Shown here piece by piece: positions 5,367 to 58,463 of a stretch of 64,000 bases of DNA. The stretch is from Parcubacteria group bacterium ADurb.Bin326 (GTDB lineage Bacteria; Patescibacteriota; Patescibacteriia; 2-01-FULL-39-33). The notes beneath the pieces were generated by a model that was not told where the DNA came from, did no database searches, and saw only the letters and a program-made list of their open reading frames with translations. The translations under genes were made by a program, and so were the position numbers. The stretch covers positions 3,818 through 67,817 of the forward strand of contig MWBE01000017.1 of assembly GCA_002068915.1 (NCBI GenBank), in the 5' to 3' direction. How positions within the stretch are numbered: position 1 is the stretch's first letter; every line of letters begins with the position of its first letter.

Positions 5367-5441
5367 GTTTTTTTCTTATAAGGTAATTATAACATTTTTG
5401 CGGGTTTTAAAAAATCCGCCTAACGACGGATTTTTTAAAAT

Positions 5442-13803: not shown

Positions 13804-13832
13804 TTGACAATTTATCAAATTTATACTAATCT
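13804..13832 (+). promoter_or_regulatory. candidate promoter (TTGACA ... TATACT/TAATCT, suboptimal spacing) for the GC-rich zinc-ribbon gene, followed by a strong SD AAGGAGG
   Basis: TTGACA at 13804-13809. Possible -10 hexamers at 13823-13828 or 13827-13832. AAGGAGG lies 8 nt before the ATG at 13887. Confidence 0.35.
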
Positions 13833-13886
13833 ATTTTAGATAGTCAGTTGTCCTTTCCATAAACATCAACTAAGGAGGATTGTGTC

Positions 13887-14366
13887 ATGAGAGCGACTCG
13901 AAACAACTCGGGTGAAGCCAAGGAAGTAAAAGAGGCCAGAAAGCGTCTACACCAGATGCGCGGTACTGGCTTTGTTCTGACCCCAGACGCCGCCAAGCTG
14001 ATTATGACGGCCGGAGGCCCGACCTTTAGAACAGTTAGTGGCGGCTATCGTTGCAACCAGACCGGAGAGAAGGTGGGGCGAGGCAGCACCGAGAACTACC
14101 GCCAACGAGTGTACGGACTGGCGGCTCCGCCCAAGCCGGTCGTAGTCCAAACGAACGCTTCGGCCAGCTCTTCTAGGAGAACGGTCCAATCGCACATTCC
14201 GGAAATTGACATCACCAGCCCTGACGTCTTTATACGTTGTCCAAACCCGCTCTGTGAAGTTGGGATCGGCTATGCCAATCTCATGCTCGAAGGTATCGGG
14301 GTCTGTCCGAGGTGCAACAAGCAGTTTCGAAAAATCCGACACCCGCAATCAGTGAAAAGGACGTAA
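13887..14366 (+). CDS. hypothetical GC-rich protein with a C-terminal Cys4 zinc ribbon (CPNPLC...CPRC)
   Basis: 159-aa ORF with SD AAGGAGG. Visibly higher GC than flanking genes. The in-frame sequence after the TAA stop (14367-14492) encodes a second CPHC...CQFC zinc ribbon. Confidence 0.55.
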   Translation: MRATRNNSGEAKEVKEARKRLHQMRGTGFVLTPDAAKLIMTAGGPTFRTVSGGYRCNQTGEKVGRGSTENYRQRVYGLAAPPKPVVVQTNASASSSRRTVQSHIPEIDITSPDVFIRCPNPLCEVGIGYANLMLEGIGVCPRCNKQFRKIRHPQSVKRT

Positions 14367-14520
14367 CCCAGTCCAACCGGAAACATCAACTGCCCGCACT
14401 GCTATGAACGAATCGCCCACATTGTTAATTTTTCTGATTTTTACTCGACGATTGAGTGTCAATTCTGCCACCGCAAGCTGATCGTCGAGTAGGATACACC
14501 CTGTCCTCCCGACTACACAT

Positions 14521-14562
14521 CCGCCGGCGCGCCACCTAGGCTCGCCGGCTTCTTTTTTTTAT
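14521..14562 (+). terminator. intrinsic terminator (GCCGGCG ... CGCCGGC + T9) ending the GC-rich cassette
   Basis: GC-rich inverted repeat followed by ttcttttttttt. Confidence 0.6.
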
Positions 14563-14612: not shown

Positions 14613-14670
14613 TAATTAAAAAATCACCAAAGCTCCGCGAACTGGATTCGAACCAGTAACCTACCGGTTA

Positions 14671-15218
14671 CACTTATCTCTGACTTTCATCAAAGGGTGG
14701 ACTATATCATTACCTTTTCCAGTCTATTGGATTAAGGTATCAGGCGCTTCGGCCCGCCTTTAACGGCGGAACTACTCCCCAAAGGGATAGTCTCTGAACC
14801 TTCCCCTGAAAGGGGCTTGGCTGCGGATTACCATATCCTTGCGGACTTAGGCTTCCCGCAATTCACCTGATTATCATTCCAAAATTTCTTTCGGAAGCTG
14901 CGTGGAGCCGGAATGTAATTCTCTATGACAATTAGCACATACTAACAAGCATTTATTAATCTCTTGAATGACTTTATCCCAAGATCTTGAAATCCTTTTG
15001 AGGAGACGCCAAAATCTTTTTTATTGCCATCCAAATGATGGAATTCTAATGCTTGCACGCATTTACTGTAGCCACAGATTTCACACTTGCCGCCTTTATA
15101 TTCCAAGGCCTTATCCCTTACGGCTTTACGCCTCTTGGACACTGCCTCAATCAAATATTTACGACGGTCGGCATATTTTCTATTATCTTTAGTCATAACT
15201 TTTGATAACAGACGGTTC
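14671..15218 (-). mobile_element. group I self-splicing intron (~548 nt) in the tRNA-Asn anticodon loop, carrying an HNH endonuclease ORF
   Basis: On the minus strand the classic core elements are read directly: P AATTGCGGGAAG (14852-14863), Q AATCCGCAGCC (14819-14829), R GTTCAGAGACTA (14788-14799), S GATATAGTCC (14699-14708). P3 ATCAGG/CCTGAT. Candidate IGS GCAGC pairs with exon GCUGU with a terminal U-G. Omega-G at 14671. Confidence 0.8.
14942..15196 (-). CDS. intron-encoded HNH-family homing endonuclease (CEICGY ... EFHHLDGNKKD)
   Basis: The ORF track shows 14942..15238, but its first 7 codons lie in the tRNA 5-prime exon. The likely start is the internal Met at 15196 (MTKDNRKY...). C-x2-C plus HH..N HNH motif. 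Confidence 0.55.
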   Translation of the reverse strand: MTKDNRKYADRRKYLIEAVSKRRKAVRDKALEYKGGKCEICGYSKCVQALEFHHLDGNKKDFGVSSKGFQDLGIKSFKRLINAC

Positions 15219-15338
15219 ACAGCCGGTTGCTCTACCATTGAGCTATCGCGGAACTCTAGTGATTTTTATGTACTTTAATGACGTTAAATATCTTAACAAA
15301 TTTTTCTGGCTAAGTCAAGCCAAATTTTCTGTGGAAAA

Positions 15339-32307: not shown

Positions 32308-32428
32308 ATATCTTAACTTTTTACTTTATTTAAATTAATCATAGCATAAAATCAATAAAGATATCTAATTTCCCAATTTATTTTATCTAATTTTAGATGT
32401 TTTATTCGATTGTGGGCTGTTTTTACTA

Positions 32429-32457
32429 TTTACAAATATTAAAATGTATGCTATAAT
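32429..32457 (+). promoter_or_regulatory. near-consensus sigma70 promoter TTTACA-N17-TATAAT
   Basis: TTTACA at 32429-32434, exact 17-nt spacer, TATAAT at 32452-32457. A GC-rich transcript region starts immediately downstream. Confidence 0.6.
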
Positions 32458-32562
32458 TAAATAATTGGTCGAGTTGACCAAGATTGGTGAAAATGGCTGT
32501 CCGACCTCGGCTTGGGTCGGCAGCAGGAATAGACCTCTGACCAGAGGCAAGAAGGAGAAAGC

Positions 32563-32758
32563 CATGAAAGAGCAAAGTCGCATGCCGGCACGCCGTCGCA
32601 GCACCGGCGAAAACGTGAGAAAACAAGAGCACCGGCCACACATGATTTTCGCCAGCTATGGTGACGGGGAACGCCCCATAATCATCCGCGAAGGCGACCG
32701 GCCGCAGCCCCGCGTTACCCGCGTCTCCGGCTCCGTTGATCCCGCCAAGGCCACCTAA
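32563..32758 (+). CDS. candidate small Arg-rich protein (64 aa, MKEQSRMPARRRSTGENVRK...), which may instead be part of a structured ncRNA
   Basis: [17 protein letters not shown]. Lies in a short GC-rich island between the promoter at 32429 and the terminator at 32830. The ORF track's longer 32465 start would sit at the transcription start and is unlikely. Confidence 0.3.
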
Positions 32759-32829
32759 CCCCGCAACACCGAGCAGCGTCTCGCCACCGCGGCGTAGATC
32801 TGCCTCCCCGCACTTTTTTTCACCTTCAC

Positions 32830-32867
32830 CCCCACCGCTTGAGAAACGGTGGGGCCATTTTTTTATT
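32830..32867 (+). terminator. intrinsic terminator (CCCCACCG-cttgagaaa-CGGTGGGG + T7)
   Basis: Read directly; preceded by a CCCCGCACTTTTTTT motif. Confidence 0.65.
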
Positions 32868-33975
32868 TCAAAGTTTCAAATATTTGCAATACTTTCTGCG
32901 CCGTATCTTTCCAATCAAACAACTTAACCCGCTCCAATCCCCTTCTGATAAATTCTTGCCTTAGACTTTCATTACTAAGTAGCAATTCCATTGCTCGTCT
33001 GATCTGAGTAATATCATAAGGATCTACCAATAAACCAGCATCAGCCAATACTTCCCCTTGCGAAGAATTAGCTCCCGCGATAACCGGCGTGCCGCAAGCC
33101 ATTGCTTCAACAATTGGCAAACCAAACCCTTCGTAAAAAGAAGGATAAACCAAAATTTGTGCCAAAGAATATAATGCTGGCTTATCTGTTTCATCGATAT
33201 AACCAATTAATTTAATTCTCTGATCTTGCGCCGCCAGCACCTTAACTCTATTATTCTTCCAGCCACTAGCTCCGGCAATCACTAATGACGCCTTAGTATC
33301 TATTTTGACAAAAGCCTTAATAACACTAATCAAATTTTTGCGTGGCTCTAAAGACCCGAGGGACAGAATAAAATTATCCGGCAAACCATATTTTTTCTTG
33401 ACCTTATCTAGCTCTGTTGCGTCATTAATCGGCTGATAAGCTCGACCGACTCCCAGTAAACAAACATGAATCTTTTCCGAATTAACCCGCGCCAAATCAA
33501 TCAAATCCTTTTTAGTATTTTCCGAATCAGCGACAATGGCGGCGGCTCTTTCTAATATCTTATTTCTAAGTATCAGTTTGTGCCACAACCGTTGCTTAAA
33601 AGTAAAAAACTCCGAATAAATCAAAAAAGACAAATCATGGACGGCTACAACATGCCCGCACTCAGACGAAAGAGAAGCGAAGTGAAGATTGGGAGAAAAG
33701 AAAACATCGCATCCGCCAATCAACTTATCTAACTTAGGCCAACCTAAAAAATTGAGAGATAGATTAAAAAGCTTATTGGGATAACGAAAACCACGCCAAG
33801 AGACATTGGGATAATCAAAATCTGGCAACTTTACGGATTTGGAGGAGTTATAAAACAAGACATATTCGTTTTGCCGATCTAATTCAAATAATGCCTTCAA
33901 TAAATTGAAGGCATACCAAGAAACCCCGGAATATTGCTCGTCCATCAAACAACGAGCATCGATGCCAATTTTCAT
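32863..33975 (-). CDS. glycosyltransferase family 4
   Basis: 370-aa ORF with a GT4 C-terminal domain (YEGFGLPIVEAMACGTPVIAG). Confidence 0.8.
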   Translation of the reverse strand: MKIGIDARCLMDEQYSGVSWYAFNLLKALFELDRQNEYVLFYNSSKSVKLPDFDYPNVSWRGFRYPNKLFNLSLNFLGWPKLDKLIGGCDVFFSPNLHFASLSSECGHVVAVHDLSFLIYSEFFTFKQRLWHKLILRNKILERAAAIVADSENTKKDLIDLARVNSEKIHVCLLGVGRAYQPINDATELDKVKKKYGLPDNFILSLGSLEPRKNLISVIKAFVKIDTKASLVIAGASGWKNNRVKVLAAQDQRIKLIGYIDETDKPALYSLAQILVYPSFYEGFGLPIVEAMACGTPVIAGANSSQGEVLADAGLLVDPYDITQIRRAMELLLSNESLRQEFIRRGLERVKLFDWKDTAQKVLQIFETLK

Positions 33976-36256: not shown

Positions 36257-36329
36257 GCGCCTATAGCTCAGTCGGTAGAGCAACAGCCTTTTAAGCTGAT
36301 GGTCCCAGGTTCGAGTCCTGGTGGGCGCA
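36257..36329 (+). tRNA. tRNA-Lys (anticodon UUU)
   Basis: GCGCCTA-TA-GCTC-AGTCGGTA-GAGC-A-ACAGC-CTTTTAA-GCTGA-TGGTC-CCAGG-TTCGAGT-CCTGG-TGGGCGC-A. Canonical cloverleaf, anticodon loop CUUUUAA. Confidence 0.9.
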
Positions 36330-36495
36330 TAAATGAAAAATCCGCTTATGGGCGAATTTTTATGTTGGCCCAATGAATTGTCTATATCATTGACAAAAAT
36401 AGATAATTATGATACTTTAATTTGTTACTAATAAAAATTAGAGCCCCCAGCTGCAAGGGTTATTGTAGTAAACGGCACATTGAAAGGTTAGAAAA

Positions 36496-38058
36496 ATGAA
36501 CATAAGTAGTTTTGTCAAAGAACTGGCAAAGATACTGCCGAAGAATCTACTCAGTATGCAAACGGATGACAGGAGGGCCGTGGCAAGTCGAGTAATATTC
36601 TCCGGAGACTGGGAGAAGCAAGAACAGACAACTCTACTCAGTAACGACCCTGTTGTTATTGATGGGCTGTATGAGAAAAAGAGTCTTCGTTTGTGTGGCC
36701 ACTTCGGGAGAAAAAGAGAGACAACCGAAATTCTCAATTTCATATCCGCTCTCCTCTTCGAGTCCAAGCAGATGATTTTTGGCCCGCTAGACTTCAAGGC
36801 TAAGGTGACGGTTTGGTGGAAAAAAGTAGAAGACTTCTTTCAAGAGACTGACATGGCAGATTTATCCGCCATTAACGTCAAAGCAGTCTTCTACTCCGAA
36901 GATCCTACTAGGCCGAGGTTCGGCCTAACCCAAAAAGAGCACCGTTTTGAAGCCCAGCTCAGCCGTTTGCCGCTTGGAATGAAAAAACTCGTAGTCACTG
37001 CCCAAGGAGATTATGCCCCCATACTTCAGAAGAAGGCTGAGGGCAGTGTGACTATAAGTTTATCGCCGGCTGACACTGAGAGATTGTTGAAGGCCTCTGG
37101 CGGGATGTCACGAAGACTGCTTGAAGCGGCACTGAAGCCGCAAAAAAAGCGAGTCTGCCGGTTCAATTCGGAAAGCGGCATGATGGAAGAGGGCTGGATT
37201 GAAGAAATCACCCTCCTTATATCAGCCTCGAGGCTTCCCTACTACGAAGGGGTCTTGAGACGCAAGCTACCGGTCAATTCCCAGGTCGGCAACAAAAGAA
37301 GCAGCATTGCCAGGATCACCAGAATCTTCTGGCGCACCAGTACTGCGCTGTCGGCAATGAAAGAGCTGATTGGCCAACTTGATTGTTTGGAAACAACAAC
37401 AGTCTTCGACCGGCCAATAATAACTTTGGCCGGGGCCAAAGCCTTCCTCGACCAACTAATGGCGGCAATTGAAGAGACTTGCATCTCCGGTCGCATGTTT
37501 TACGGAGTCGCCAACCGACAACTTAGGCTCTTTGCCCTAAAGCAAGCGGAGGAGCAGTTTGGCAAAGACGTAGTAACCAAACGAGAAGACATGGAAGAGC
37601 GCCAATACGTAGAATTCCTCGAAGAACTGGGGTTTATCAAAGGAGTTCAAGCAGAAGAAGGCTCTCTCGATTTCAATTTTAAAGAGAAAAACCTCTTCTT
37701 GTTTCTGCTACAGTCCTACCGAGCTAATCCCGAAAAGCTTGTCGCCCGATACCGGGAACTCTACGTCAACAAGCCACCAAAGACCCTTATTTGGGGTGAA
37801 GCCGTTCTCGACGCCTCCAAGCTGAAGAGACTACAATTGCCGTCTCAGGCGAAAGTCAGCGGTCTAAGCCTCAGAAAGATTCCAGGAACAGGAGAATCGG
37901 AAGAGTTGATTGTTCAGAATGAATTGCCCTTTAAGGAAAACGATTTTTCCTTTTGGGCAAGAATTCCAATCGAGTCTGAAGGCACCCCGCTCCTGGAACT
38001 GCAGAACTACGCTTGCGAAGCCCTGGGAATCACTGTTGCGAATGCGACTGGCGCCTGA
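36496..38058 (+). CDS. hypothetical protein (520 aa), compositionally distinct from neighbours, immediately downstream of tRNA-Lys
   Basis: Long ORF with moderately elevated GC and no recognised motifs. Candidate promoter TTGACA (36390-36395) with a weak -10. Own terminator downstream. Confidence 0.5.
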   Translation: MNISSFVKELAKILPKNLLSMQTDDRRAVASRVIFSGDWEKQEQTTLLSNDPVVIDGLYEKKSLRLCGHFGRKRETTEILNFISALLFESKQMIFGPLDFKAKVTVWWKKVEDFFQETDMADLSAINVKAVFYSEDPTRPRFGLTQKEHRFEAQLSRLPLGMKKLVVTAQGDYAPILQKKAEGSVTISLSPADTERLLKASGGMSRRLLEAALKPQKKRVCRFNSESGMMEEGWIEEITLLISASRLPYYEGVLRRKLPVNSQVGNKRSSIARITRIFWRTSTALSAMKELIGQLDCLETTTVFDRPIITLAGAKAFLDQLMAAIEETCISGRMFYGVANRQLRLFALKQAEEQFGKDVVTKREDMEERQYVEFLEELGFIKGVQAEEGSLDFNFKEKNLFLFLLQSYRANPEKLVARYRELYVNKPPKTLIWGEAVLDASKLKRLQLPSQAKVSGLSLRKIPGTGESEELIVQNELPFKENDFSFWARIPIESEGTPLLELQNYACEALGITVANATGA

Positions 38059-38083
38059 TTCCTGGCCCACCTTTCCCGCCCAG

Positions 38084-38117
38084 GGGACAACGTTTCGAAC
38101 ACGTTGTCCCTTTTTTT
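38084..38117 (+). terminator. intrinsic terminator (GGGACAACGT-ttcgaac-ACGTTGTCCC + T7)
   Basis: Perfect 10-bp stem followed by a T-run. Confidence 0.7.
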
Positions 38118-38206
38118 ATTGTATAAAATGTTGATAATCTGTTCACAACCGACGGTTTGCCAGAATCGCTACAATCAAGTAAAATACAAGCGTTAAACAA
38201 ACCCTC

Positions 38207-48360: not shown

Positions 48361-50517
48361 ATGGATAAAAAACAGATAAAAATAGCCAAATTGGCTATCG
48401 AGGCCGACGGCAACATCATCGGTGAGTCTTTCGTTGCCAAGCCCGAAAAAGATCTGGCCTCTAAATTAGGGGTTCTTTTTGGCGTTATCGAAATGTACAA
48501 CGTCGATGATAATTTCTCCCATAAGCTTTTGGAAGCGGTTAGCGATCTAAAAACAGAGTTTTATTTGCCGCCTTACGGCACTCAATCCACTCCGGAAAAA
48601 CGTTTCGAAGAATCTTTGGCTCGAGCCAATCGCCGACTGTTTTCCGCTTTTAGTGAATCCATTGAACCTATTGATCTCAGAAACATTAATGTCACGATAG
48701 GGCTATCTAGAAAAAACGAGGTTTACTTGTCACAAATCGGACACGGCAAGGCCTTCTTGTTTCATCGCAAGAAAAACTGGGAGATGCTGGTTTTGGATAT
48801 TTTGTCAGATGAAGATCGTCCGGCGGAAAAACCTAACCCCGAAAAACTTTTTTCCAGCGTCTTGTCGGGAGCAGTTGGGGAAAACGACGGACTACTTGTT
48901 TGCAACGAGGAGTTTCTCGGTTATTTTTCACAAAACGAATTAGCCCGAACCATAGACGAACACGCTCCTGATGGAGCACTCAAATACTTAGGCGATCAAA
49001 TCAGAGAAAAAGTAGCTAAGGCCAATTTTTATGCCATCGCTATCAAGCCGGAACAGAAAGAAAAATTATTAGCGGAAGATATTTCCCAATCCAAGCCGAT
49101 AACTTCAAAATCCGGAGGCACCCAAACTTCCATCAATAAGCTACTCAACACTCAAGCCGAGACAGAAAAATATCTCGCGCCTTCGATGATGCCTAATTGG
49201 CAGAAAGCCTTAATTATTAGTGGTAGCTGGCTTAAAAAGGCCGGCTCAGTGGCTCTTGCCAAAACTGGCGTGGCTGCAGTTGCTGTCGCTAATTTGGCTA
49301 AAGAAAAACTAAATAAGCCTAAAGCCAATAAAGAAATTAAACGGGTTCAAGGAACTGAGGTTGTCCGCACCCCCAAAACCGAAGTTGCCTCTAATGACAA
49401 CAATCGAGAAGAAGAACTAAATTATAATGACCTTCCGACTAAAAATACCGACGAACGATTTGAGGCCAATGAAAATATTTCCTCCGATTTTAAGGTAACC
49501 GAAGAAGTTGAAAATATTCCGAAGCTTAATGAAAAAATCACTCCCCCCGCCACTCTAACCAAGCCAGCCAAGACTTCTTCCGGAAAAATCTCAAATCTGA
49601 TCAATGGCTGGATTAATGATCAAATAGTTAAATTCTTATCTTTGAAATTATCCCAAAGAGTAGTACTTGCTTTGGCCTTGGCATTACTTTTCCTTTTTAG
49701 CCAAAGCATTGTTTGGATTGGCAGAGCCGAAGAATCCTCTTCGACTAGAATTTCTTCCAACAACAAAGCAGCTCAAGAAATCCAAAGACTCGTCGATAAC
49801 GCTGAGGCGCAAAATATCTTCAACGACGAAGTGGGAGCCATGGCCAGCATTAAAAAAGCCAGGGAAACATTGGAAGAAATACCGGATCGCTGGGGCAATA
49901 AAGATTTGCGTCGTCAACTTATAGAAAAGATAGATTCTACTTATCGTCGATTGCAAAAAATAACCGTCTTGGACTCCCCCAAAGAATTAATCAACTTGGG
50001 TGAAGGAAGCTACGTGGGATTAGCTAGAACCACAAGAGTGCTCTGGTGCTTCAACAATTCCAACAAGGAGTTAATAAGTATTGAGGAGTCCGGTGCGGTC
50101 AAGCGTTTCCCTTCACAAATGCCGGAGGTCAGTAAATTGTCCGCCATCGATGATCGCTACCTCGCTATCCTAACTCAAGATAACTCCTTCTACCGCTACG
50201 AAGTTCCCAAAGACGAGGCAGTTAAAACCAAGCCGGGCAAAGATTATTTTACCGTCAAATATCCCACTCCCTCGCCCCTACTAGACCCTCCGCTTACCGC
50301 TTCATCAACGATTCGCAACATTTCTAGTGGTGAATATCACTATATTTTAGACAAAGACAATGGCAGGATTGTGATTTTGGACAAAAACGGAGCCATCAAA
50401 AAACAATACTACTCAGAAAAAATAAAATTGGCCGACTCTTTAATCGCCAATACTAAGGGCAAAAAACTCTGGTTCTTATCCGACGATTCAATTTATGAGA
50501 TAGACACCGAAATTTAA
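48361..50517 (+). CDS. hypothetical membrane-associated protein (718 aa; central TM)
   Basis: Long ORF with one clear hydrophobic helix (VVLALALALLFLF). No family recognised. Confidence 0.4.
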   Translation: MDKKQIKIAKLAIEADGNIIGESFVAKPEKDLASKLGVLFGVIEMYNVDDNFSHKLLEAVSDLKTEFYLPPYGTQSTPEKRFEESLARANRRLFSAFSESIEPIDLRNINVTIGLSRKNEVYLSQIGHGKAFLFHRKKNWEMLVLDILSDEDRPAEKPNPEKLFSSVLSGAVGENDGLLVCNEEFLGYFSQNELARTIDEHAPDGALKYLGDQIREKVAKANFYAIAIKPEQKEKLLAEDISQSKPITSKSGGTQTSINKLLNTQAETEKYLAPSMMPNWQKALIISGSWLKKAGSVALAKTGVAAVAVANLAKEKLNKPKANKEIKRVQGTEVVRTPKTEVASNDNNREEELNYNDLPTKNTDERFEANENISSDFKVTEEVENIPKLNEKITPPATLTKPAKTSSGKISNLINGWINDQIVKFLSLKLSQRVVLALALALLFLFSQSIVWIGRAEESSSTRISSNNKAAQEIQRLVDNAEAQNIFNDEVGAMASIKKARETLEEIPDRWGNKDLRRQLIEKIDSTYRRLQKITVLDSPKELINLGEGSYVGLARTTRVLWCFNNSNKELISIEESGAVKRFPSQMPEVSKLSAIDDRYLAILTQDNSFYRYEVPKDEAVKTKPGKDYFTVKYPTPSPLLDPPLTASSTIRNISSGEYHYILDKDNGRIVILDKNGAIKKQYYSEKIKLADSLIANTKGKKLWFLSDDSIYEIDTEI

Positions 50518-50552
50518 TAGACCAACCCTGACCAAATATAATTACGGCCAAT

Positions 50553-50588
50553 AAAAAAAGCCCGCTTGATGCGGGACTTTTTTTATTT
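50553..50588. terminator. bidirectional intrinsic terminator (GCCCGC-ttgat-GCGGGAC + T9, preceded by A8)
   Basis: Sits between the convergent 718-aa gene and rplL. Confidence 0.6.
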
Positions 50589-50594
50589 TGTCTC

Positions 50595-50993
50595 TTATTT
50601 AAGAGTAACGGTAGCGCCAGCTTCTTCCAATTCTTTCTTAATCTTTTCGGCTTCTTCCTTCTTAGCACCTTCTTTGACCATCTTAGGAGCTCCATCAACC
50701 AAATCCTTAGCTTCTTTCAAGCCCAAGGCAGTGATAGTGCGGACAACTTTGATGACATTGATCTTCTGATCGCCAGCGGCGGTAAGTTCAACATCGAAAG
50801 AATCCTTCTCCTCAGCGGCAGCAGCTCCGGCTCCACCGGCAGCCATCATGACTGGGGCAGCAGCAGAAACACCAAACTTCTCTTCTAAAACTTTGACCAA
50901 CTCAGCCAAATCAATGACTGACAATTTGTCGATTTGTTCTACCAAAGATTTGAATTTCTCCGGTACCATAACCTCTTTTTGTTCTTCTGACAT
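50595..50993 (-). CDS. rplL: 50S ribosomal protein L7/L12
   Basis: 132-aa ORF with an Ala-rich hinge and the C-terminal domain ([11 protein letters not shown]...ATVTLK). Confidence 0.95.
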
Positions 50994-51017
50994 ATTTTTT
51001 TCCTTTTAGTTAATAAT

Positions 51018-51521
51018 TTAGGCGGTAGAGCCTTCTTTGCTCTCCTTGATCGCGTTGATTACGCGAGCCAAGCCGGACATCGGATTGGAGATACAACCGA
51101 CAACCTTGGCCAGCAACTCCTTTCTAGAAGGAATTTTGGATAACTCGGTAACACGACCGGCGTCGATGAATTTGCCTTCCAGCACTCCTCCGACGAACTT
51201 CACTTTGTCGTTTTCCTTGGCAAACGAAGCTAAGATTCTAGCTGGAGCAACTTCATCCTCATAAGAGAATAAAGTGGCGACCTCGCCCTGCAGCTCGGCT
51301 GCAGCAGCATCTTCAAACCCTTTTTCTGAGAGAACTTTCTTTAGCAAGGTTTTCTTAGCCACCAAATAATCGATGCCTTCCTTGCGACAGTTGTCTCTAA
51401 GTTTGTTGATGTCCTTAACTTCTATGCCGGAAAAGTTGAACATGACAGCGGACTTCATTTGGCCAACTTTGTCGGACAAAGTTCCCAAAATGGCAGTCTT
51501 CTGCGCTTTTGTTTTTGGCAT
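51018..51521 (-). CDS. rplJ: 50S ribosomal protein L10
   Basis: 167-aa ORF immediately upstream of rplL, with an L10 N-terminal domain. Confidence 0.95.
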   Translation of the reverse strand: MPKTKAQKTAILGTLSDKVGQMKSAVMFNFSGIEVKDINKLRDNCRKEGIDYLVAKKTLLKKVLSEKGFEDAAAAELQGEVATLFSYEDEVAPARILASFAKENDKVKFVGGVLEGKFIDAGRVTELSKIPSRKELLAKVVGCISNPMSGLARVINAIKESKEGSTA

Positions 51522-51690
51522 AGCTTGATTGTTAATTTTCTAAACTAACTTCCGTTATACAAAAAAACTGCGTTTCCGCAGATCTTAAAATGGCTAAAAA
51601 GCCGTTTCTCGGCAGGTCTTATCGGGGTTTTTCTCCCCAGCCCACTGTCTACGAAAGTTATGCTCTAATTATAGCAGAAAGCTAAAAAAA
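51522..51690 (-). promoter_or_regulatory. rplJ promoter (TTGACT-N16-TATAAT) and ~150-nt structured leader containing a terminator-like hairpin (CTGCG-gaaa-CGCAG + U7): candidate L10-leader attenuator
   Basis: Read on the minus strand. L10-leader autoregulation by attenuation is established in Firmicutes; assignment here is by position and structure only. Confidence 0.4.
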
Positions 51691-51787
51691 GTCAAATGAT
51701 TGATGGTTGAGGCTGTAAAAATGGGACTGATTTTAATTAAAATTATCTAAATCTAAATAAAATATAATAAATTATATCGCACATCTC

Positions 51788-51816
51788 TTGACAAAATATC
51801 TAATGTGTGCTATAAT
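51788..51816 (+). promoter_or_regulatory. exact consensus sigma70 promoter TTGACA-N17-TATAAT driving a ~170-nt GC-rich structured leader
   Basis: TTGACA at 51788-51793, 17-nt spacer, TATAAT at 51811-51816. Confidence 0.65.
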
Positions 51817-51988
51817 TATATATTGTAATTGAAACAATTCAGTTGCAACGGTCCTTAACAACTAGGGAACGAAAGCGGGTACGGCTCTCAGATAGCTGTG
51901 CTCGCAGGATCTATAGGAAGCGACTTCGGCGGCAGTGGAGCTGCTTTGAAGTCGTAAGAATGGCACAACCCAAGAAGGAGAACTTGCC

Positions 51989-53491
51989 ATGAAGAAACTT
52001 AGTGTTGTATTGATGATGGTTTTTGTGGTTTTCGGCTGCCTGGTGCTTACCGGCTGTAACAAGCCTGGCGACAACAACGGCGAGAACCCGCCGGCCGTGG
52101 TCAACCCTGAAGGCGAAACGCCCGAGGGCGAAGACGGGCCGACGATCCGCCCGGTTGTGGAAGGTGAACCTGAGACCCCTGCGGTCGAGGGTGAACCGGA
52201 AGTGCCTGCCGAGGGCGAGCCCGAAGTGCCGACGGAACAGTCCGGCAGTATCGTTATCACCGGAGTCCTTTTCAAGGGACTGCCGGCAACCAAGGCGCTG
52301 AGCGCGGACGAGAACGGACTGACAGCTGAAGAGCTGAGTCAGGCGTTCCTCGAAATCGCTGCGGCGACCGATGGACTGGAGTTGGTGCTTGACGGTGACG
52401 GCGAGAATGATTACAAACGCTCCTGCACTGTGCAGAGCGACGGGTCATTCTTCTTGCGCCTGGCAAGTGTTCTGCCCGGCGATTACAAGCTGGAGCTGAA
52501 CACCATGTCCAGCACCACCGGCATCAACGGCTGGGGCAAATCCGAAGTCGATGTGAAAATCGAAGCCGGCAAGGTCACCCAGGTGACCGTCGCCCTCGAG
52601 CGGATGGAAACGTTCGCAATCCTCGGATACTTCAGCGATGAACTCGCGGAAGATGAGGATTGGGGTTCGTTTGAAGCCTTCCTAGTCGACACCGCGGGAA
52701 ACAATTATACCGCGGTCCTCGCCAAAAACGATGCCGACGAATGGGTGATCAACGGGTACAACCTGCCTGTCTCGGCCATCATTGGGGCCTTGAAGATCAC
52801 GGGCGACGACATCGAAACCATGATGTTCGCCGTCGACACGACGAGCACGGCTTTCGAGAACGGCTACTCGTTATTCGACGTGATCGACAACGAAGCCATG
52901 CTCGCCCTCGTATCCGACACTGGAGACCTTGAAGTCACCGTCCCCCCGATTGATCTGGGTGAAGGTGAAGACGAAGAGGGCGAAGTTGAGAGTGAGGACG
53001 AAACCGAAGGCGAAGGCGAAACTGAAGGCGAAGGAGAAGTTGAAGATGATAACTCCCTTCCCCTGGTCGCCGGCAAAGCGACGGTCGGGCTGATCATCGA
53101 AACCGATGGCTCAGTGACGATGCTCGCCGACGCCAACGAGGGCTTCAGCCTGCCCCTGTCCTTCTACGGCCTCCCCGCTTCGATTGCCTCGCTCGGCGTC
53201 GAGGTTTACTACCTGGATGACGCCCACGACCCCGACGGTGCTTGGGAAGATCGCCAAGTCGTGGCTTGCTCCGGACTGCCGTTCGAGGCAACCGTGAACA
53301 TCTTCGATTCCCCGGTCTGGCGTTTCCAAGTGGTTGCCAACTCCGTGGACATGTGGGCCGGAAACTATGCCAACTCCGTGAAGTTCCATGTCGTGGTCAA
53401 GTACCGCGATGCTGAGAATTGGACAACACTGAGTCAGTCCGATGACGGCAGTGGCAACATGGCGTACCAGGTCGATACCCGGACGCTGTAA
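51989..53491 (+). CDS. GC-rich acidic lipoprotein (500 aa; lipobox LVLTGC; Glu/Pro-rich linker repeats; Asp/Glu-rich segments)
   Basis: [19 protein letters not shown]. Signal peptide plus Cys lipobox. Composition strongly GC-rich compared with neighbours. No catalytic motif recognised. Confidence 0.55.
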   Translation: MKKLSVVLMMVFVVFGCLVLTGCNKPGDNNGENPPAVVNPEGETPEGEDGPTIRPVVEGEPETPAVEGEPEVPAEGEPEVPTEQSGSIVITGVLFKGLPATKALSADENGLTAEELSQAFLEIAAATDGLELVLDGDGENDYKRSCTVQSDGSFFLRLASVLPGDYKLELNTMSSTTGINGWGKSEVDVKIEAGKVTQVTVALERMETFAILGYFSDELAEDEDWGSFEAFLVDTAGNNYTAVLAKNDADEWVINGYNLPVSAIIGALKITGDDIETMMFAVDTTSTAFENGYSLFDVIDNEAMLALVSDTGDLEVTVPPIDLGEGEDEEGEVESEDETEGEGETEGEGEVEDDNSLPLVAGKATVGLIIETDGSVTMLADANEGFSLPLSFYGLPASIASLGVEVYYLDDAHDPDGAWEDRQVVACSGLPFEATVNIFDSPVWRFQVVANSVDMWAGNYANSVKFHVVVKYRDAENWTTLSQSDDGSGNMAYQVDTRTL

Positions 53492-53520
53492 ACGCCACCC
53501 CCCTACCCCGCACTTTTACT

Positions 53521-53558
53521 CCCCCCAGCTACTGAAAGCAGCTGGGGGTCTTTTTTTT
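53521..53558 (+). terminator. intrinsic terminator (CCCCAGCT-actgaaagc-AGCTGGGG + T8), preceded by a CCCCGCACTTTT motif
   Basis: Read directly. Confidence 0.7.
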
Positions 53559-53638
53559 CTTCATTTTTATAGCTATAATCAGGGGTCGACTTTTAGAGTA
53601 AAAAATGGTAAGCTATAAACATTATAACTATAAGAATT

Positions 53639-54892
53639 ATGGAAAAATACGTTATCGAAGGCGGTCATAAGCTGCACGGAGAAATTCCGGTTTATGGCGC
53701 TAAAAATGAGGCACTCAAAATTATTGCCGCCTCTGTCTTACTTGAAGGCAAGTGCACCATCAAAAACATTCCCGAAATTGAAGATATTAATCGCTTGGTA
53801 GAAATACTGGAAGACTTGGGCGCCAAAGTCGAAAGAAACGGCCACGAGATAACCATTGATCCGCAATCAATTAATAAAACTAAGCCGTCAGATGATTTAG
53901 TTCATAAGTTGCGTTCATCAGTAATGTTGGCCGGACCTTTGTTAGCGCATTACGGCAAAGTGACTATGGCACATCCGGGCGGTTGTGTTATTGGACAGCG
54001 ACCAATTGATATGTTCCTGTCAGGATTTAAAGCCATGGGCGCTAAAGTTGAAGAAAATGATCACGAGTACACTTTGCAAGCCAAAAAATTGCACGGTGCC
54101 AAAATTGTCATGCCTTGGGTAATGGTAACGGCTACCGAATCGCTGATGATGACTGCGTGTCTGGCTGAAGGCACTACGACAATTATCAACGCTGCCATGG
54201 AGCCGGAAATTCCTGCTTTGGCCGACTTCCTTAATTCTTGTGGCGCCAAAATTTCCGGAGCCGGTACCCCGATCATCACTATCGAAGGCGTCGAAAAATT
54301 ATCCGGTGGCGAATGTACAATTATTCCTGACCGCATCGAAGCCGGAACTTTCGCTATCATGGGACTAATAACCGGAAGTGAAATAACTGTTACCGGTTGC
54401 GAACCGAAACATTTAGAAACTGTTTTAGAAACTTTGCGTCGCGCCAACGCAAAACTTGAGGTTGGCGATAATTGGATCAAAACTAAGCCCTCAAAATTAA
54501 AAGCAGTTGAGTTGCGCACTCACGAATATCCGGGATTTCCTACCGACTTGCAATCCCCTTTTACTATCTTAATGACTCAAGCCGAGGGCATGTCGCTGAT
54601 TCATGAAGCTATTTATGAAGGGCGACTTTTCTACACTGACAAACTCAACGCTATGGGCGCCAAGATCATCATGTGCGATCCGCATCGAGTAATTGTCAGC
54701 GGTCCCACTCCTCTTATCGCCAAAAAACTAGAATCGCCTGATTTACGAGCTGGTATGGGGTTGGTATTGGCGGGACTTGTAGCCGAAGGAAAAACTGTCA
54801 TTGACAATATTTACCAAATCGAACGTGGCTACGAAAACCCAATCGCGCGCTTGCAGGCGCTAGGGGCTAAAATAGAAAAAATTAAAGAATAA
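53639..54892 (+). CDS. murA: UDP-N-acetylglucosamine 1-carboxyvinyltransferase
   Basis: 417-aa ORF with EPT-family motifs and the active-site region (MAHPGGCVIGQRPID). Confidence 0.95.
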   Translation: MEKYVIEGGHKLHGEIPVYGAKNEALKIIAASVLLEGKCTIKNIPEIEDINRLVEILEDLGAKVERNGHEITIDPQSINKTKPSDDLVHKLRSSVMLAGPLLAHYGKVTMAHPGGCVIGQRPIDMFLSGFKAMGAKVEENDHEYTLQAKKLHGAKIVMPWVMVTATESLMMTACLAEGTTTIINAAMEPEIPALADFLNSCGAKISGAGTPIITIEGVEKLSGGECTIIPDRIEAGTFAIMGLITGSEITVTGCEPKHLETVLETLRRANAKLEVGDNWIKTKPSKLKAVELRTHEYPGFPTDLQSPFTILMTQAEGMSLIHEAIYEGRLFYTDKLNAMGAKIIMCDPHRVIVSGPTPLIAKKLESPDLRAGMGLVLAGLVAEGKTVIDNIYQIERGYENPIARLQALGAKIEKIKE

Positions 54893-54894
54893 AT

Positions 54895-56208
54895 ATGAAC
54901 TTAATTTTCAGAAGGTTTGTTTATATTTTCTTCATTATAATTTTCCTTTTGGCTGCTCCGGCCGCGGTGCTCTACACCATGGGTTACCGCTATAATTTTT
55001 CTGCTGGCCGAGTACAAAAAACCGGACTGATGAAAATAACCTCCGTTCCCAAAGACGCGGATATCTATCTTAACGGAATCAAATACGAAAAATCACAAAC
55101 TCCAGCTAAGATCGAATACTTATTGCCTGGCGATTACGAAATTAAAATCTCCAAAGACGGCTATCATGATTGGCAAAAAAAATTAGCCGTCTATGAAAAC
55201 GGCACTACTTTTGCCGAAAAAATAATTCTTTGGAAAAAAAACCAACCGGAAAAAATCGAGGCTACGACTACAGCTTGGTCCGCCTCAGACGATGGCAACA
55301 AGGTTGCCTTAGGTCAGGACAATATTGTTAAAATCTTAAATATCAGTAGCGGACTATTAGGAGAGACTGAGGGTGGAGACATAACTAAGTCAGCTGAATT
55401 ACCCGAGGGTACAAGAATAAACAAAATCTCTTTTTCTCCCAACAGCAAAAAAATCTTAATTGACTCGACGGTATCCGGCAAAAAGCAGTACTGGCTTCAT
55501 GCTCTTGATTGGCAAAAACCACTGCAACTGCCAACAACCTTTTCGGGATTTAAGTTTAATCAAAAAGATAGCGAGCTTTACGGCTTCAATACTTCGGGAA
55601 TATTTTTGATTGACTCCGCAAGACTGGCAACTAAACAACTCCTACGCGCCAATGATATCAAAGACATTCTGCCTGATTCTGATTTAATCTATTTGGTTAA
55701 TGGTAAAACCTTGGACATTTTTGAAACCACGAAAAACAATCGAACTAACATCGAAGAACTTTCCTGCACTGATTGTCGATTGGAAAAAATAGTTTCTTCA
55801 AAGCTTTTTACCTTTGATGATGCCTACAAAAAGATGAGTATCATTGACCTGGCCAGAAAGAAAAAAACCACGTCTTTTGAAGCTAAAGGTATTGACGTCT
55901 TAAATGATAATTCAGTAATGTTTTACGGCGACTGGGAAATTTTCGTCTATGACTTTGACAAAGAATCTCCTGAGTTAATCACCAGAATGGGAGAAGCGGT
56001 GCTGGCTGCTTGCTGGCATCCTAAAGCTCGCCACCTATTCTTTTCTACTAAAGACAAGATCAAGGTGATTGAATTAGATAATCGAGAGTTGCGCAATATT
56101 ATCGATATTTCTGAGGGTAAAAATCATTCCTCCCTGCGTTTTGACAGAATTGGCAATATCCTCTACTCTAACAGCGATAACGGAATAGAAAAATTAAAAC
56201 TGCAATAA
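54895..56208 (+). CDS. PEGA domain-containing membrane-anchored protein with a C-terminal beta-propeller-like region
   Basis: 437-aa ORF with an N-terminal TM and a PEGA motif (PKDADIYLNG...LLPGDYEIKISKDGY). Confidence 0.55.
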   Translation: MNLIFRRFVYIFFIIIFLLAAPAAVLYTMGYRYNFSAGRVQKTGLMKITSVPKDADIYLNGIKYEKSQTPAKIEYLLPGDYEIKISKDGYHDWQKKLAVYENGTTFAEKIILWKKNQPEKIEATTTAWSASDDGNKVALGQDNIVKILNISSGLLGETEGGDITKSAELPEGTRINKISFSPNSKKILIDSTVSGKKQYWLHALDWQKPLQLPTTFSGFKFNQKDSELYGFNTSGIFLIDSARLATKQLLRANDIKDILPDSDLIYLVNGKTLDIFETTKNNRTNIEELSCTDCRLEKIVSSKLFTFDDAYKKMSIIDLARKKKTTSFEAKGIDVLNDNSVMFYGDWEIFVYDFDKESPELITRMGEAVLAACWHPKARHLFFSTKDKIKVIELDNRELRNIIDISEGKNHSSLRFDRIGNILYSNSDNGIEKLKLQ

Positions 56209-56222
56209 TTAAATTAGACATA

Positions 56223-56250
56223 AAAAACGGAGCAAACGCTCCGTTTTTTT
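56223..56250. terminator. bidirectional intrinsic terminator (AACGGAGC-aaac-GCTCCGTT with flanking A/T runs)
   Basis: Sits between the convergent PEGA gene and the HIT gene. Confidence 0.6.
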
Positions 56251-56659
56251 ATTTAATCAAGTTTTTTATTTTTTCAAGAATCGCTTCCGCCTCTCCCTCG
56301 CCATAAGGCCGGCCGTGCCAAAGCTCCCGTCCGTCACCTTCAAAACGAGGAACGATATGCCAATGAAAATGTCCCACTTCCTGCCCGGCAATCTTGCCAT
56401 TGTTTAAATTAAGATTGAAGGCCTTAGACTCTACGCCAGAAATTACTGCCGGAGCTATTTTTTTAATTCTCGCTATCAGTGTTTGTGCCTCGACTTCGGG
56501 CAACTCGAGCAAATCGGCGTAATGGCGCTTAGGAATAACTAGCGTGTGCCCCGGATTAACCGGCGAGATATCCAAAAAAGCCAAAACATCATCATCTTCG
56601 TAAACTTTATGGCAAGGAATTTCTCCTTTGACAATCTTGCAAAAAATACAATCTTCCAT
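56249..56659 (-). CDS. HIT-family nucleotide hydrolase (histidine triad)
   Basis: 136-aa ORF with the HFHWHIVPR triad. Confidence 0.85.
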   Translation of the reverse strand: MEDCIFCKIVKGEIPCHKVYEDDDVLAFLDISPVNPGHTLVIPKRHYADLLELPEVEAQTLIARIKKIAPAVISGVESKAFNLNLNNGKIAGQEVGHFHWHIVPRFEGDGRELWHGRPYGEGEAEAILEKIKNLIK

Positions 56660-56669
56660 ATTTTTTTAT

Positions 56670-58463
56670 TTATTTGATAGTGCGACTGGCACAATTATTG
56701 TTATTGATTGTTTCTTGAAATCTCTTGGCGGAAACAGCCTCTAAAGCTAATATTACTTCTAGGTCATCATCGATGCAAGGATAGCTGTCGAGCTTAGAAA
56801 TATCTTTCCAAATAGCTTCTGCTTTGGCCCAATCGCGATCACTGACATTTACTTTAAGTAACGGCCCAGAATAGAAACTGATCGTGAATAATAAAGACAA
56901 GGTAATCACGGCCAATTGTGATTTTTTAACAACCACAAAATCATAAATCGGCTCGGCCAAGATAAAAATAAAAAAGACTGAAGAAAAAAACGTTAATCGA
57001 CGCGCAAGGGAGTGCTCCCCCGAAAGCAATGTCCAAGAAAAAACATAGGTTGCAGTCAAAGAAAAAAACATCAAGCAAATTGCCAAACGAACAGCGTCAT
57101 TTTTTTTCCAACACTGCCAGCAAGCCAAAAGAGAAACAAGAATAAAAATAATTGCAAATAGTATGTCGAGAATTTCAAGCAGGTTGGCATCAACGAAAGA
57201 AAAACGCGACAGCGAATTGAAATACAACAGACTTCCGGCAGACCAAGCGCTTCTTATCTTGCCTAAGAAAAAATCAAAACGGTTGCCGTCAAGCAATTCC
57301 AAACCAAACATAAACAAAGCAATGGCGCCGGCCGCAATAATTCCCAGCCAGCGATTTTTTCGTAGCGCCAAAGTCAAAAAACTCAAAGCAAGCAATGCCA
57401 AAAAAGACAGAGAATAATTAAAATAAGACAAAGCCGTAAATCCTCCGGCCAGCAATAATATTTTTTTCTCTCCGTTTTTAAGATAGTTCAGCCAAAGCGG
57501 AATTACCGCGAGAACAACCAGAACCCCGTATGAAGCCGGCAAACCTTGAGCGCCATAGTACTGCAACAAATAAAGACCATTGCCGATTAAAGCTGGGATA
57601 AGCGCCTTGTTCCTGTCAGAAAAAAGCAACAAGCCAACAAGATAAGATAGTAAAGTAAAACTCAGGGACCAAAATATCGGCAAGGCAAACTTATTAATCT
57701 GAAAGACTCCGACTCCGGTGAGTTGAGACGAAAAAGCCTCAATCGACCACTGAAGGCCGTAAGAAATTTTGGCTCGATCAACTAGGGCTTGTGGGATCTT
57801 TATTGGCCCAAGATTAACGGTCCACAAATCCTTAGTTAATAAAGTTGGCTGATAATCTAATCCTTGCAATAATCTATTTTCCGACCCTAAATGACGGAAT
57901 CTATCGCCGCCAAAGCCGTTTTGATAAACCAATAGATAACTATGGATAAAAAATGACAACGCGATTATCGACCAAAGAATCTTCTTGGGACTTATCTTTT
58001 GTACAATCGACCAGAGGACGAATAGAAAACCAAACAAGGCCGAGACAACAAACCACCAGGGTAAAGCCTCCCAAGGAGAAAACATTTTTTCTCCTTTAGC
58101 CATGAGTACTGACGAAATTACTCCGGAAATCACAACTAAATAAAAAATTACCCAAACGACCTTAGGCCAATCATTGAGATCGACTGTAGTAATTTTTTGT
58201 TCGCTTTCCGGAAGTGGCGCCTTAATCCACTTATTAACTCCCCAAAAAATAAGCGCCGTCAAAATCAGCGATAGCCACATCAACCAAAAATCATATTTAA
58301 ACCATGAGGTAAAAAGTCCCCCTATTAATCCGAAAGAAATCAAAGATAGAATAATTCCGTAAAAAAAAGATTCGCCCCGACTAAAAGGAAAAATCTTGGC
58401 AACAATTTTTGCGGCCAAGCTCCCCACCAAAACAATAGAAATTATGAATGCCAAAAATGCCAT
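56670..58463 (-). CDS. polytopic integral membrane protein (>=12 predicted TM helices), possibly a GT-C-type glycosyltransferase or polymerase
   Basis: 597-aa ORF, hydrophobic throughout. Functional guess is by analogy only. Confidence 0.35.
   Translation of the reverse strand: MAFLAFIISIVLVGSLAAKIVAKIFPFSRGESFFYGIILSLISFGLIGGLFTSWFKYDFWLMWLSLILTALIFWGVNKWIKAPLPESEQKITTVDLNDWPKVVWVIFYLVVISGVISSVLMAKGEKMFSPWEALPWWFVVSALFGFLFVLWSIVQKISPKKILWSIIALSFFIHSYLLVYQNGFGGDRFRHLGSENRLLQGLDYQPTLLTKDLWTVNLGPIKIPQALVDRAKISYGLQWSIEAFSSQLTGVGVFQINKFALPIFWSLSFTLLSYLVGLLLFSDRNKALIPALIGNGLYLLQYYGAQGLPASYGVLVVLAVIPLWLNYLKNGEKKILLLAGGFTALSYFNYSLSFLALLALSFLTLALRKNRWLGIIAAGAIALFMFGLELLDGNRFDFFLGKIRSAWSAGSLLYFNSLSRFSFVDANLLEILDILFAIIFILVSLLACWQCWKKNDAVRLAICLMFFSLTATYVFSWTLLSGEHSLARRLTFFSSVFFIFILAEPIYDFVVVKKSQLAVITLSLLFTISFYSGPLLKVNVSDRDWAKAEAIWKDISKLDSYPCIDDDLEVILALEAVSAKRFQETINNNNCASRTIK

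Follow-up and report, generated by a model that had tools for sequence, protein, structure and literature searches.

How does a strongly GC-rich gene for a secreted, acidic lipoprotein, equipped with its own expression signals, come to lie between rplJ and murA on an AT-rich contig? Here, we address this question for a 64,000-nucleotide stretch of contig MWBE01000017.1 of Parcubacteria group bacterium ADurb.Bin326 (hereafter, the window), in which the unit in question spans positions 51,788 to 53,558 and encodes a 500-aa protein. Based on its MurA relatives, the host organism is assigned to Candidatus Buchananbacteria within Patescibacteria. Our analyses support a model whereby the unit is probably a strain-variable, recombining and highly expressed surface lipoprotein cassette of a new orphan family of Buchananbacteria.

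The unit is an autonomous, monocistronic cassette with its own promoter, folded leader and terminator (Table 1). A first-pass annotation of the window, made from the DNA letters alone, had listed these signals, i.e., an exact consensus promoter, a structured leader of ∼170 nt, a Shine-Dalgarno (SD) sequence, a 500-aa open reading frame (ORF) with a signal peptide and lipobox, and a GC-rich terminator, and all of them are present. Taken as a 38-nt string, the promoter has a single occurrence in the window (zero expected), and it is nearly identical in the related locus L088 (loci of related genomes are designated by L, and proteins of the family by P). The palindrome ATCTA-N3-4-TAGAT, of which a degenerate copy precedes the promoter, has three perfect copies in the window compared to 0.09 expected. 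Perfect copies lie 5' of the family gene in L001 and L088 and also at two further GC-rich units of the window; among 1 Mb of related loci, the cassettes of L001 and L088 and a single additional site are the only places with the palindrome. At the opposite end of the unit, the C-rich 3' untranslated region (UTR) is kept in L001, L002, L087 and L088 although the C-terminal domains encoded there differ, and 3' UTR and terminator together are 80 to 86% identical across all four GC-rich alleles. The region upstream of rplJ (51553-51672, minus strand), which borders the cassette on its left, resembles the Rfam L10 leader below threshold (20.9 bits compared to a gathering score of 44) and is probably a divergent L10 leader because it is conserved in L001 and L007.

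The slot between the rplJL operon and murA is variable within one sub-clade of Candidatus Buchananbacteria, in which it contains a gene of the lipoprotein family, is empty, or contains other self-expressed cargo. In five of the six loci with a family gene (the window, L001, L087, L088 and L089), this gene is directly upstream of murA and on the same strand; in the sixth, L090, the contig ends inside the gene and the downstream flank is absent. The rplJ gene is upstream of the family gene wherever the contig extends that far, and MurA of the genomes that use the same slot is 63 to 87% identical to that of the window. In the closest species representative, L007 (MurA identity, 88%), the gene is missing and rplJ and murA are separated by an empty spacer of 418 bp. 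Because homology between the window and L007 stops at ∼51765 and resumes at ∼53563, the indel is exactly the promoter-to-terminator unit. In L008, the slot contains a 739-aa DEAH-helicase-like ORF (DEAD/Helicase_C) on the opposite strand (4401-6918), which is driven by an inverted, near-identical copy of the window promoter with the palindrome upstream, and which ends with GCACTTTCGC, a hairpin and a T-run. In L009, it contains two ORFs of no known family, also on the other strand (5432-6816), and a homolog of one of them, judged by eye, is present in L010 (∼6520-6821, minus strand). These L009 and L010 slot proteins make up a small orphan family with the motif HKVFYSRPD...TILP.DYH.RW.IS; the second slot ORF of L009 (238 aa) is receiver-domain-like as judged by eye. 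The idea that the lipoprotein is generally encoded upstream of murA was rejected, since more distant Buchananbacteria carry pyrG-rplI-peptidase at this position.

A protein identical to that of the window is encoded on GCA_022705865.1 (contig JAKJDR010000001.1) and also on a contig assembled independently at ENA (L006). Because the identical unit is present in the independent L006 assembly, it is not an assembly artefact. The compositional boundaries of the cassette are sharp, as they would be if a GC-rich fragment of another organism had been joined into an AT-rich contig during assembly or binning. However, the same junctions recur in L006 and in the genomes of four relatives from different samples, which refutes a chimera, and the AT-rich promoter and flanks are continuous with conserved neighbours. 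We consider the probability of a chimeric origin to be negligible.

The family to which the lipoprotein belongs appears from homology searches to be tiny, orphan and confined to a few Buchananbacteria. A word-indexed search of 5.8 billion proteins returned two homologs, and an exhaustive HMMER search of 1.84 billion cluster representatives returned seven clusters (P0002 to P0008). Profile-based protein searches returned at least three proteins and two proteins, with a fragment, P0009, as the single new member. Searches of phages and plasmids by tblastn with the cassette protein gave no matches, and neither did a scan of viral contigs for the promoter string; in metagenome scans, the leader motif had no matches and the profile of the conserved N-terminal module (hereafter, N module) recovered only the already known L090 contig. 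We found no literature on this lipoprotein family. The cassette also belongs to no curated protein or RNA family: among Pfam and NCBIfam models, none matched at the curated cut-off (best match, NOMO_6th with 12.5 bits; cut-off, 27), PHROG had no match for the lipoprotein, PDB sequence searches with the N module and the C-terminal domain gave nothing significant, and the PADLOC defence models did not match the lipoprotein, the helicase cargo of L008 being weakly matched by generic helicase models.

Promoter, leader, N module and C-terminal module (C module) have been reassorted between genomes, with sharp recombination breakpoints. Compared to the window, MurA is 87, 75 and 63% identical in L087, L001 and L088, respectively, while the corresponding identities of the N module are 37, 73 and 33%. 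The promoter of the window is of the same type as that of L088, and L001 and L087 share another type. The C module of the window protein is found only in P0001 and P0003. In a comparison with the P0001 allele (L002), the DNA is 72 to 78% identical through the N module, with synonymous sites saturated, jumps at ∼aa 350-375, and is 98 to 100% identical from ∼aa 375 through the 3' flank. Compared to L006, the window has no difference from 49179 to 53528, and SNP-dense blocks start in the terminator (first SNPs at 53529 and 53535) and extend through murA, in which 36 of 42 SNPs are at third codon positions. Over 49174-57813, these two strains of one species have 0 SNPs in 4.3 kb, 44 in murA, and 1 and 110, respectively, in two successive stretches of 1.5 kb. 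This pattern of SNP blocks indicates frequent homologous recombination in the population. At the same time, the lipoprotein ORF is under purifying selection. Its ratio of nonsynonymous to synonymous substitution rates (dN/dS) is 0.12 compared to L002 and 0.19 compared to L001, indicating that this is a real, constrained gene.

In composition, the cassette is set apart from the surrounding DNA, as the first-pass annotation had already stated for the adjacent genes. Its GC content is 0.56 to 0.61 compared to a window mean of 0.419 ± 0.042, and the GC content at third codon positions (GC3) of the ORF is 0.714 compared to 0.425 ± 0.050 for the 44 other ORFs (approximately +5.8 standard deviations), making it the strongest outlier in the window; at first codon positions, the GC content is 0.636 compared to 0.486. 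The relatives differ in this respect. The cassette and the median ORF have GC3 values of 0.71 and 0.42 in the window, 0.63 and 0.39 in L001, 0.73 and 0.30 in L088, and 0.44 and 0.39 in L089; the cassette of L087 has a GC3 of 0.69 compared to 0.51 for murA, and that of L090, in which the contig ends in the gene, has a GC3 of 0.52. Median GC3 values of Buchananbacteria loci lie between 0.14 and 0.59. L007 has a GC content of 0.27 and a median GC3 of 0.14 compared to 0.42 in the window despite the 88% identity of MurA, indicating a very wide divergence in base composition inside a small clade.

The codon shift is a general one toward C- and G-ending codons, with C at 0.43 of third positions compared to 0.20 in the bulk; it partly parallels the bias of rplJ and rplL and correlates with that of other GC-rich units of the window (r = 0.69). 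Neither amino acid content nor ordinary codon adaptation explains this composition; pure codon adaptation is insufficient to account for GC3, and the four-fold codon families are unlike those of rplJ and rplL. One alternative is that the GC richness is made in place, either by selection for C-ending codons at very high expression or by GC-biased gene conversion at a recombination hotspot. In line with this idea, rplJ and rplL also have a raised GC3 (0.50 to 0.55) and, like the lipoprotein gene, prefer AAC, ATC and TTC; moreover, recombination breakpoints lie in and beside the gene, and the GC3 of the cassette is independent of that of its host. However, the preferred codons are GCT, ACT, GTT and TTG in the ribosomal-protein genes but GCC/GCG, ACC/ACG, GTC/GTG and CTG in the lipoprotein gene. 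In L087 and L088, purine-ending codons shift too, with GAG exceeding GAA, and the family members in L089 and L090 are not GC-rich. A GC3 shift of +0.3 to +0.4 also far exceeds any effect of gene conversion known to us, which we count against this alternative. Altogether, we regard an origin of the GC richness in place as possible but unlikely.

A second alternative is a one-off, recent insertion of the gene from an unrelated GC-rich donor, e.g., a host organism. The GC3 of 0.71 compared to 0.43, a codon shift unlike the ribosomal-protein bias, and the lack of the gene in L007 would fit such an event. By contrast, searches of 5.8 billion and 1.8 billion proteins and of phages and plasmids detected no homolog beyond the small family of Buchananbacteria, and the same slot is used in genomes in which MurA is just 63 to 87% identical. 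The promoter, SD sequence and flanks are native-looking and common to relatives, and the alleles are anciently diverged (33 to 50% at the amino acid level) and yet all at this locus. A one-off acquisition is, in our view, very unlikely. Thus, the horizontal acquisition proposed in the first-pass annotation is upheld insofar as the composition is foreign and the gene is present or absent among relatives; it does not hold as a single insertion from an outside donor, the family being limited to Buchananbacteria, located in the same slot and recombined in its parts.

The lipoprotein is predicted to be a very acidic, lipid-anchored surface protein with a modular architecture of anchor, Pro/Glu spacer, two beta-sandwiches, acidic spacer and distal domain. 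Its N-terminus passes a PROSITE PS51257-type rule, which specifies a positive n-region, an uncharged hydrophobic core and a lipobox of the type [LVI..][ASTG..][GAS]-Cys in which residue 15-35 is the Cys; here, these are MKK, LSVVLMMVFVVFGCLVL and LTG-C23, and the same holds for all family members. The mature protein has a net charge of approximately −76. The EGEPE(T/V)PA units and the acidic repeats described earlier are both present (Table 1); P0002 has four such units. The full-length members of the family have in common the signal peptide with lipobox, a Pro-rich or acidic spacer and the conserved module of ∼240 aa, followed by unrelated C modules. The N module was modelled as tandem beta-sandwiches, for which the top structural matches are adhesins and pilins. 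The earlier description of the protein as surface or adhesin-like is therefore supported by the acidic, secreted lipoprotein sequence and by this model; the protein is not matched by a Pfam domain at threshold. The Bact_surface_Ig-like domain was detected in P0004 alone, in the C module specific to that protein. We rejected the possibility that the ORF is the target of a diversity-generating retroelement or is supplied from silent cassettes: a BLASTN search of the window (word size 7) with the cassette as query returned only the cassette itself, no reverse transcriptase is encoded among the neighbouring genes, and the window contains no template repeat of the ORF.

The leader is strongly structured. 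Folded through position 52000, the region starting at 51823 has a minimum free energy (MFE) of −64.8 kcal/mol compared to −45.1 ± 4.0 kcal/mol for dinucleotide shuffles (z = −4.94), and 0 of 200 shuffles were as stable. In the MFE structure, CGACTTC (51921-51927) pairs with GAAGTCG (51948-51954), with the GCAG/CTGC pairing inside, in agreement with the hairpins named in the first-pass annotation. A 10-codon upstream ORF starts with the ATG at 51960, and its TGA overlaps the main ATG; the AUGGC...GCCAUG arrangement recurs at 32493-32566 in another GC-rich unit of the window. The six leaders of the family are 134 to 166 nt long, begin with a 5'-terminal hairpin and end with AAGGAG, and a hairpin at the equivalent place is also present in that other unit (32385-32870).

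These features raise the question of whether the leader is a specific cis-regulatory RNA, i.e., a riboswitch or a protein-binding element, that switches translation by opening the helix at the start codon. Several observations are consistent with this idea. First, the leader is strongly folded (z = −4.9), the start codon is paired and the SD sequence is enclosed. Second, the leaders of L001, L087, L088 and L089 have a common core of 110 nt with three helices and 27 pairs, in which 94% of the cells are paired and three pairs have double changes, clearly better than in slid controls. Third, a covariance model of 110 positions and 27 pairs built from these four loci (R1) scores 76 to 121 bits on them. 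However, the covariation test is weak with four sequences, and 17 of 500 shuffles match the observed number of double-change pairs. Rfam gave no match on the plus strand of 51817-51988, even at E-values of up to 10. Moreover, R1 scores 16 bits on L090 and only 2.6 bits on the window with filters off, and the window leader was, therefore, rejected as a type-1 leader of the relatives. The window leader has a different sequence and the same architecture, suggesting a generic role, e.g., in mRNA protection or in tuning of initiation, rather than that of a specific riboswitch. We consider a specific regulatory RNA unlikely, and the proposal of the earlier annotation in this direction is weakened.

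Altogether, we favour the interpretation of the unit as a strain-variable surface lipoprotein cassette that recombines and is highly expressed. The unit would be transcribed strongly and constitutively, and its 5' hairpins would mainly protect the mRNA and tune initiation, as do ompA or S-layer leaders, rather than sense a ligand. The protein, as judged from its predicted signal, would be exported by Sec and lipidated at Cys23; the disordered acidic spacers would hold it away from the membrane, and the variable distal domain may be displayed to hosts, phages or other cells. Frequency-dependent selection together with homologous recombination via the conserved flanks could keep many divergent alleles circulating, and the GC-rich composition may mark the cassette as part of a circulating accessory pool rather than of the resident chromosome. 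Four points weigh against this interpretation. First, the fold assignment covers the N module and not the C-terminal domain, since an AlphaFold2 model of the whole protein, based on a three-sequence alignment, was unusable (predicted local distance difference test score, 33). Second, the GC3 excess (0.71 compared to 0.43 in the window; 0.73 compared to 0.30 in L088) may reflect biased gene conversion or selection on the mRNA as well as a separate gene pool. Third, the leader conserved with some covariation in four relatives leaves room for specific regulation. Fourth, since the overall dN/dS is low, the argument for diversifying selection comes from allele replacement alone.

Comparison with known systems helps to place the cassette. 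Variable surface lipoproteins of host-dependent bacteria, such as OspC and Vsp of Borrelia and Vlp and Vsa of Mycoplasma, combine conserved expression and export signals with divergent mature parts, acidic or repetitive spacers and allele exchange. The cassette resembles them in the lipobox, the conserved signals, the divergent mature parts, the spacers and the recombining alleles; it differs in that it has no sequence relationship or demonstrated fold relationship to these proteins, is present at a single chromosomal locus instead of being multigene or plasmid-borne, and has no phase-variation repeats or silent cassettes in the BLAST comparison of the cassette with the window. The mRNA leaders of E. 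coli ompA and of S-layer genes, which encode abundant envelope proteins, are long and have a stem-loop at the very 5' end and another beside the ribosome-binding site (RBS). The window leader likewise has a 5'-terminal stem-loop and a hairpin at the RBS, and its product is presumably an abundant envelope protein; however, there is no sequence similarity, and the window leader also pairs the start codon itself. Unlike Gram-positive adhesins and pilins with CnaB- or transthyretin-like beta-sandwiches, the cassette protein is anchored by a lipobox and not by an LPXTG sortase signal, and it has no Pfam domain at threshold. Recombination at Borrelia lipoprotein loci is described in one published study (PMC11389397). 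Phage morons are defined by their own promoter and terminator, a GC content unlike that of their neighbours and presence in some relatives only, and bor of lambda is cited as a lipoprotein (PMC3594210). The cassette is similar to morons, such as lambda bor and HK97 gene 15, in being a single gene with its own promoter and terminator, lying between unrelated genes, with deviant GC content and variable presence, and morons often encode a surface lipoprotein. It differs in its location, which is not a prophage but the chromosomal interval between two core genes, rplJ and murA, with no phage genes nearby and no PHROG matches, and in that a whole family of alleles, as well as other cargo, makes use of its slot.

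Surface proteins of the ultra-small bacteria of the Candidate Phyla Radiation are nearly all unannotated orphans, and what these bacteria present to hosts and phages is largely obscure. The locus is a candidate for a major strain-variable surface antigen in Buchananbacteria, and its fixed and easily amplified address between rplJ and murA could serve population typing. It also documents, for an uncultivated lineage, homologous recombination and the replacement of alleles. Finally, the maintenance of a GC3 of 0.7 in genomes with a GC3 down to 0.30 is a compositional puzzle that bears on the movement of accessory genes among reduced genomes.

Table 1. Features of the lipoprotein cassette and of further GC-rich units in the window
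Feature	Position	Strand	Remarks
Left boundary: rplJ promoter (TTGACT-N16-TATAAT) and L10-leader-like element	51553..51695	−	Kept with or without the cassette
Degenerate copy (ATCTAAATCTAAAT) of palindrome ATCTA-N3-4-TAGAT	51745..51758	+	29 nt 5' of the −35; candidate protein-binding site
Sigma-70-type promoter TTGACA-N17-TATAAT	51788..51816	+	Score 12/12; TGTG-c extended −10 (TRTGn)
Predicted 5' UTR, 166 nt, five hairpins	51823..51988	+	Putative transcription start ∼51823
5'-terminal stem-loop, 11 bp	51823..51848	+	Begins at predicted +1; MFE structure
Long hairpin CGACTTCGGCGGCAG...CTGC..GAAGTCG	51920..51955	+	MFE structure
Helix AUGGCA/UGCCAU	51960..51990	+	51960-51965 with 51985-51990; encloses SD, pairs first two start-codon bases
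Ribosome-binding site AAGAAGGAGAA	51972..51982	+	AAGGAG type; GGAG ends 8 nt before ATG
Lipoprotein ORF, 500 aa	51989..53491	+	GC3 0.71
Predicted signal peptide and lipobox, MKK-hydrophobic-LTG-Cys23	51989..52057	+	PROSITE-type rule; alternative Cys17 possible
Pro/Glu-rich spacer, aa 24-84	52058..52240	+	Three EGEPE(T/V)PA units (aa 58-83)
Conserved family module, aa 85-322 (∼240 aa)	52241..52954	+	Modelled as one helix and two beta-sandwich domains
Acidic Gly/Glu/Asp linker, aa 323-354	52955..53050	+	18-nt tandem repeat at 52999-53038
Exchangeable C-terminal domain, aa 355-500	53051..53488	+	
C-rich 3' UTR ending with CCGCACTTT	53495..53516	+	Two window copies only, the other at the second unit (32385-32870)
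Intrinsic terminator	53522..53558	+	9-bp GC-rich stem and U8
Right boundary: conserved murA upstream region	53563..53638	+	Homology to empty-site L007 resumes
Second GC-rich autonomous unit	32385-32870	+	Between two minus-strand glycosyltransferase-like genes
Third GC-rich unit	13805-14560	+	TTGACA −35; palindrome ATCTATTTTAGAT (13829-13841) between promoter and SD
Possible further accessory unit	36391-38120	+	TTGACA promoter; 520-aa orphan ORF, GC3 0.54

Other parts of the window contain units that resemble the lipoprotein cassette. The unit at 32385-32870 has the palindrome ATCTAATTTTAGAT, a promoter of the type TTTACA-N17-TGcTATAAT, a 5'-terminal hairpin and the AUGGC...GCCAUG helix, followed by a basic, GC-rich orphan ORF of 64 aa (32564-32758), CCTCCCCGCACTTTT and a terminator. 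Its RBS string is the same as that of the lipoprotein gene, and the exact string occurs in the window only at 51972-51982 and 32549-32559. Three strings, CCGCACTTT among them, are shared by these two units and occur at only these two sites of the window. Two of the three are above chance; for CCGCACTTT, two copies were reached in 10 of 100 shuffles, and its weight comes from its position. The autonomous units at 13805-14560 and 36391-38120 share some traits of the lipoprotein cassette. The former encodes a 159-aa orphan protein (13887-14366; GC3, 0.61), and downstream of this gene lie a short ORF for a Cys-rich, Zn-ribbon-like product, a C-rich tract and, at 14523-14560, a strong terminator. 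The latter directly follows a tRNA-Lys gene (36257-36329); Pfam, NCBIfam, PHROG and PADLOC gave no match for its ORF, after which come CCCACCTTTCCCGCCC and a terminator.

Although we find it doubtful, the lipoprotein unit may belong to a class of self-expressing, GC-rich cassettes that circulate among Patescibacteria as a gene pool of their own, with a common control frame around unrelated cargo. The frame may consist of the ATCTA-N3-4-TAGAT palindrome, the TRTG promoter, the 5'-terminal hairpin, the RBS string, and the C-rich CCGCACTTT with terminator; the cargo may include the lipoprotein, the 64-aa basic protein, the Zn-ribbon ORFs at 13887-14490 and the L008 helicase. If such a class exists, it would be the chromosomal equivalent of phage morons and would have its own regulator or its own mechanism of insertion and exchange; this mechanism, or biased gene conversion, would maintain the high GC content despite the AT pressure in the host genomes.

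On the minus strand (14640-15252), a tRNA gene appears to be split by a group I intron (14678-14954; 101 bits in Rfam). The T-arm and the 3' half of the acceptor stem follow the intron at ∼14640-14677, a weak tRNA match is located at 15143-15252, and the sequence immediately upstream of the intron core encodes the motif CANCHRELH, which is HNH-endonuclease-like.

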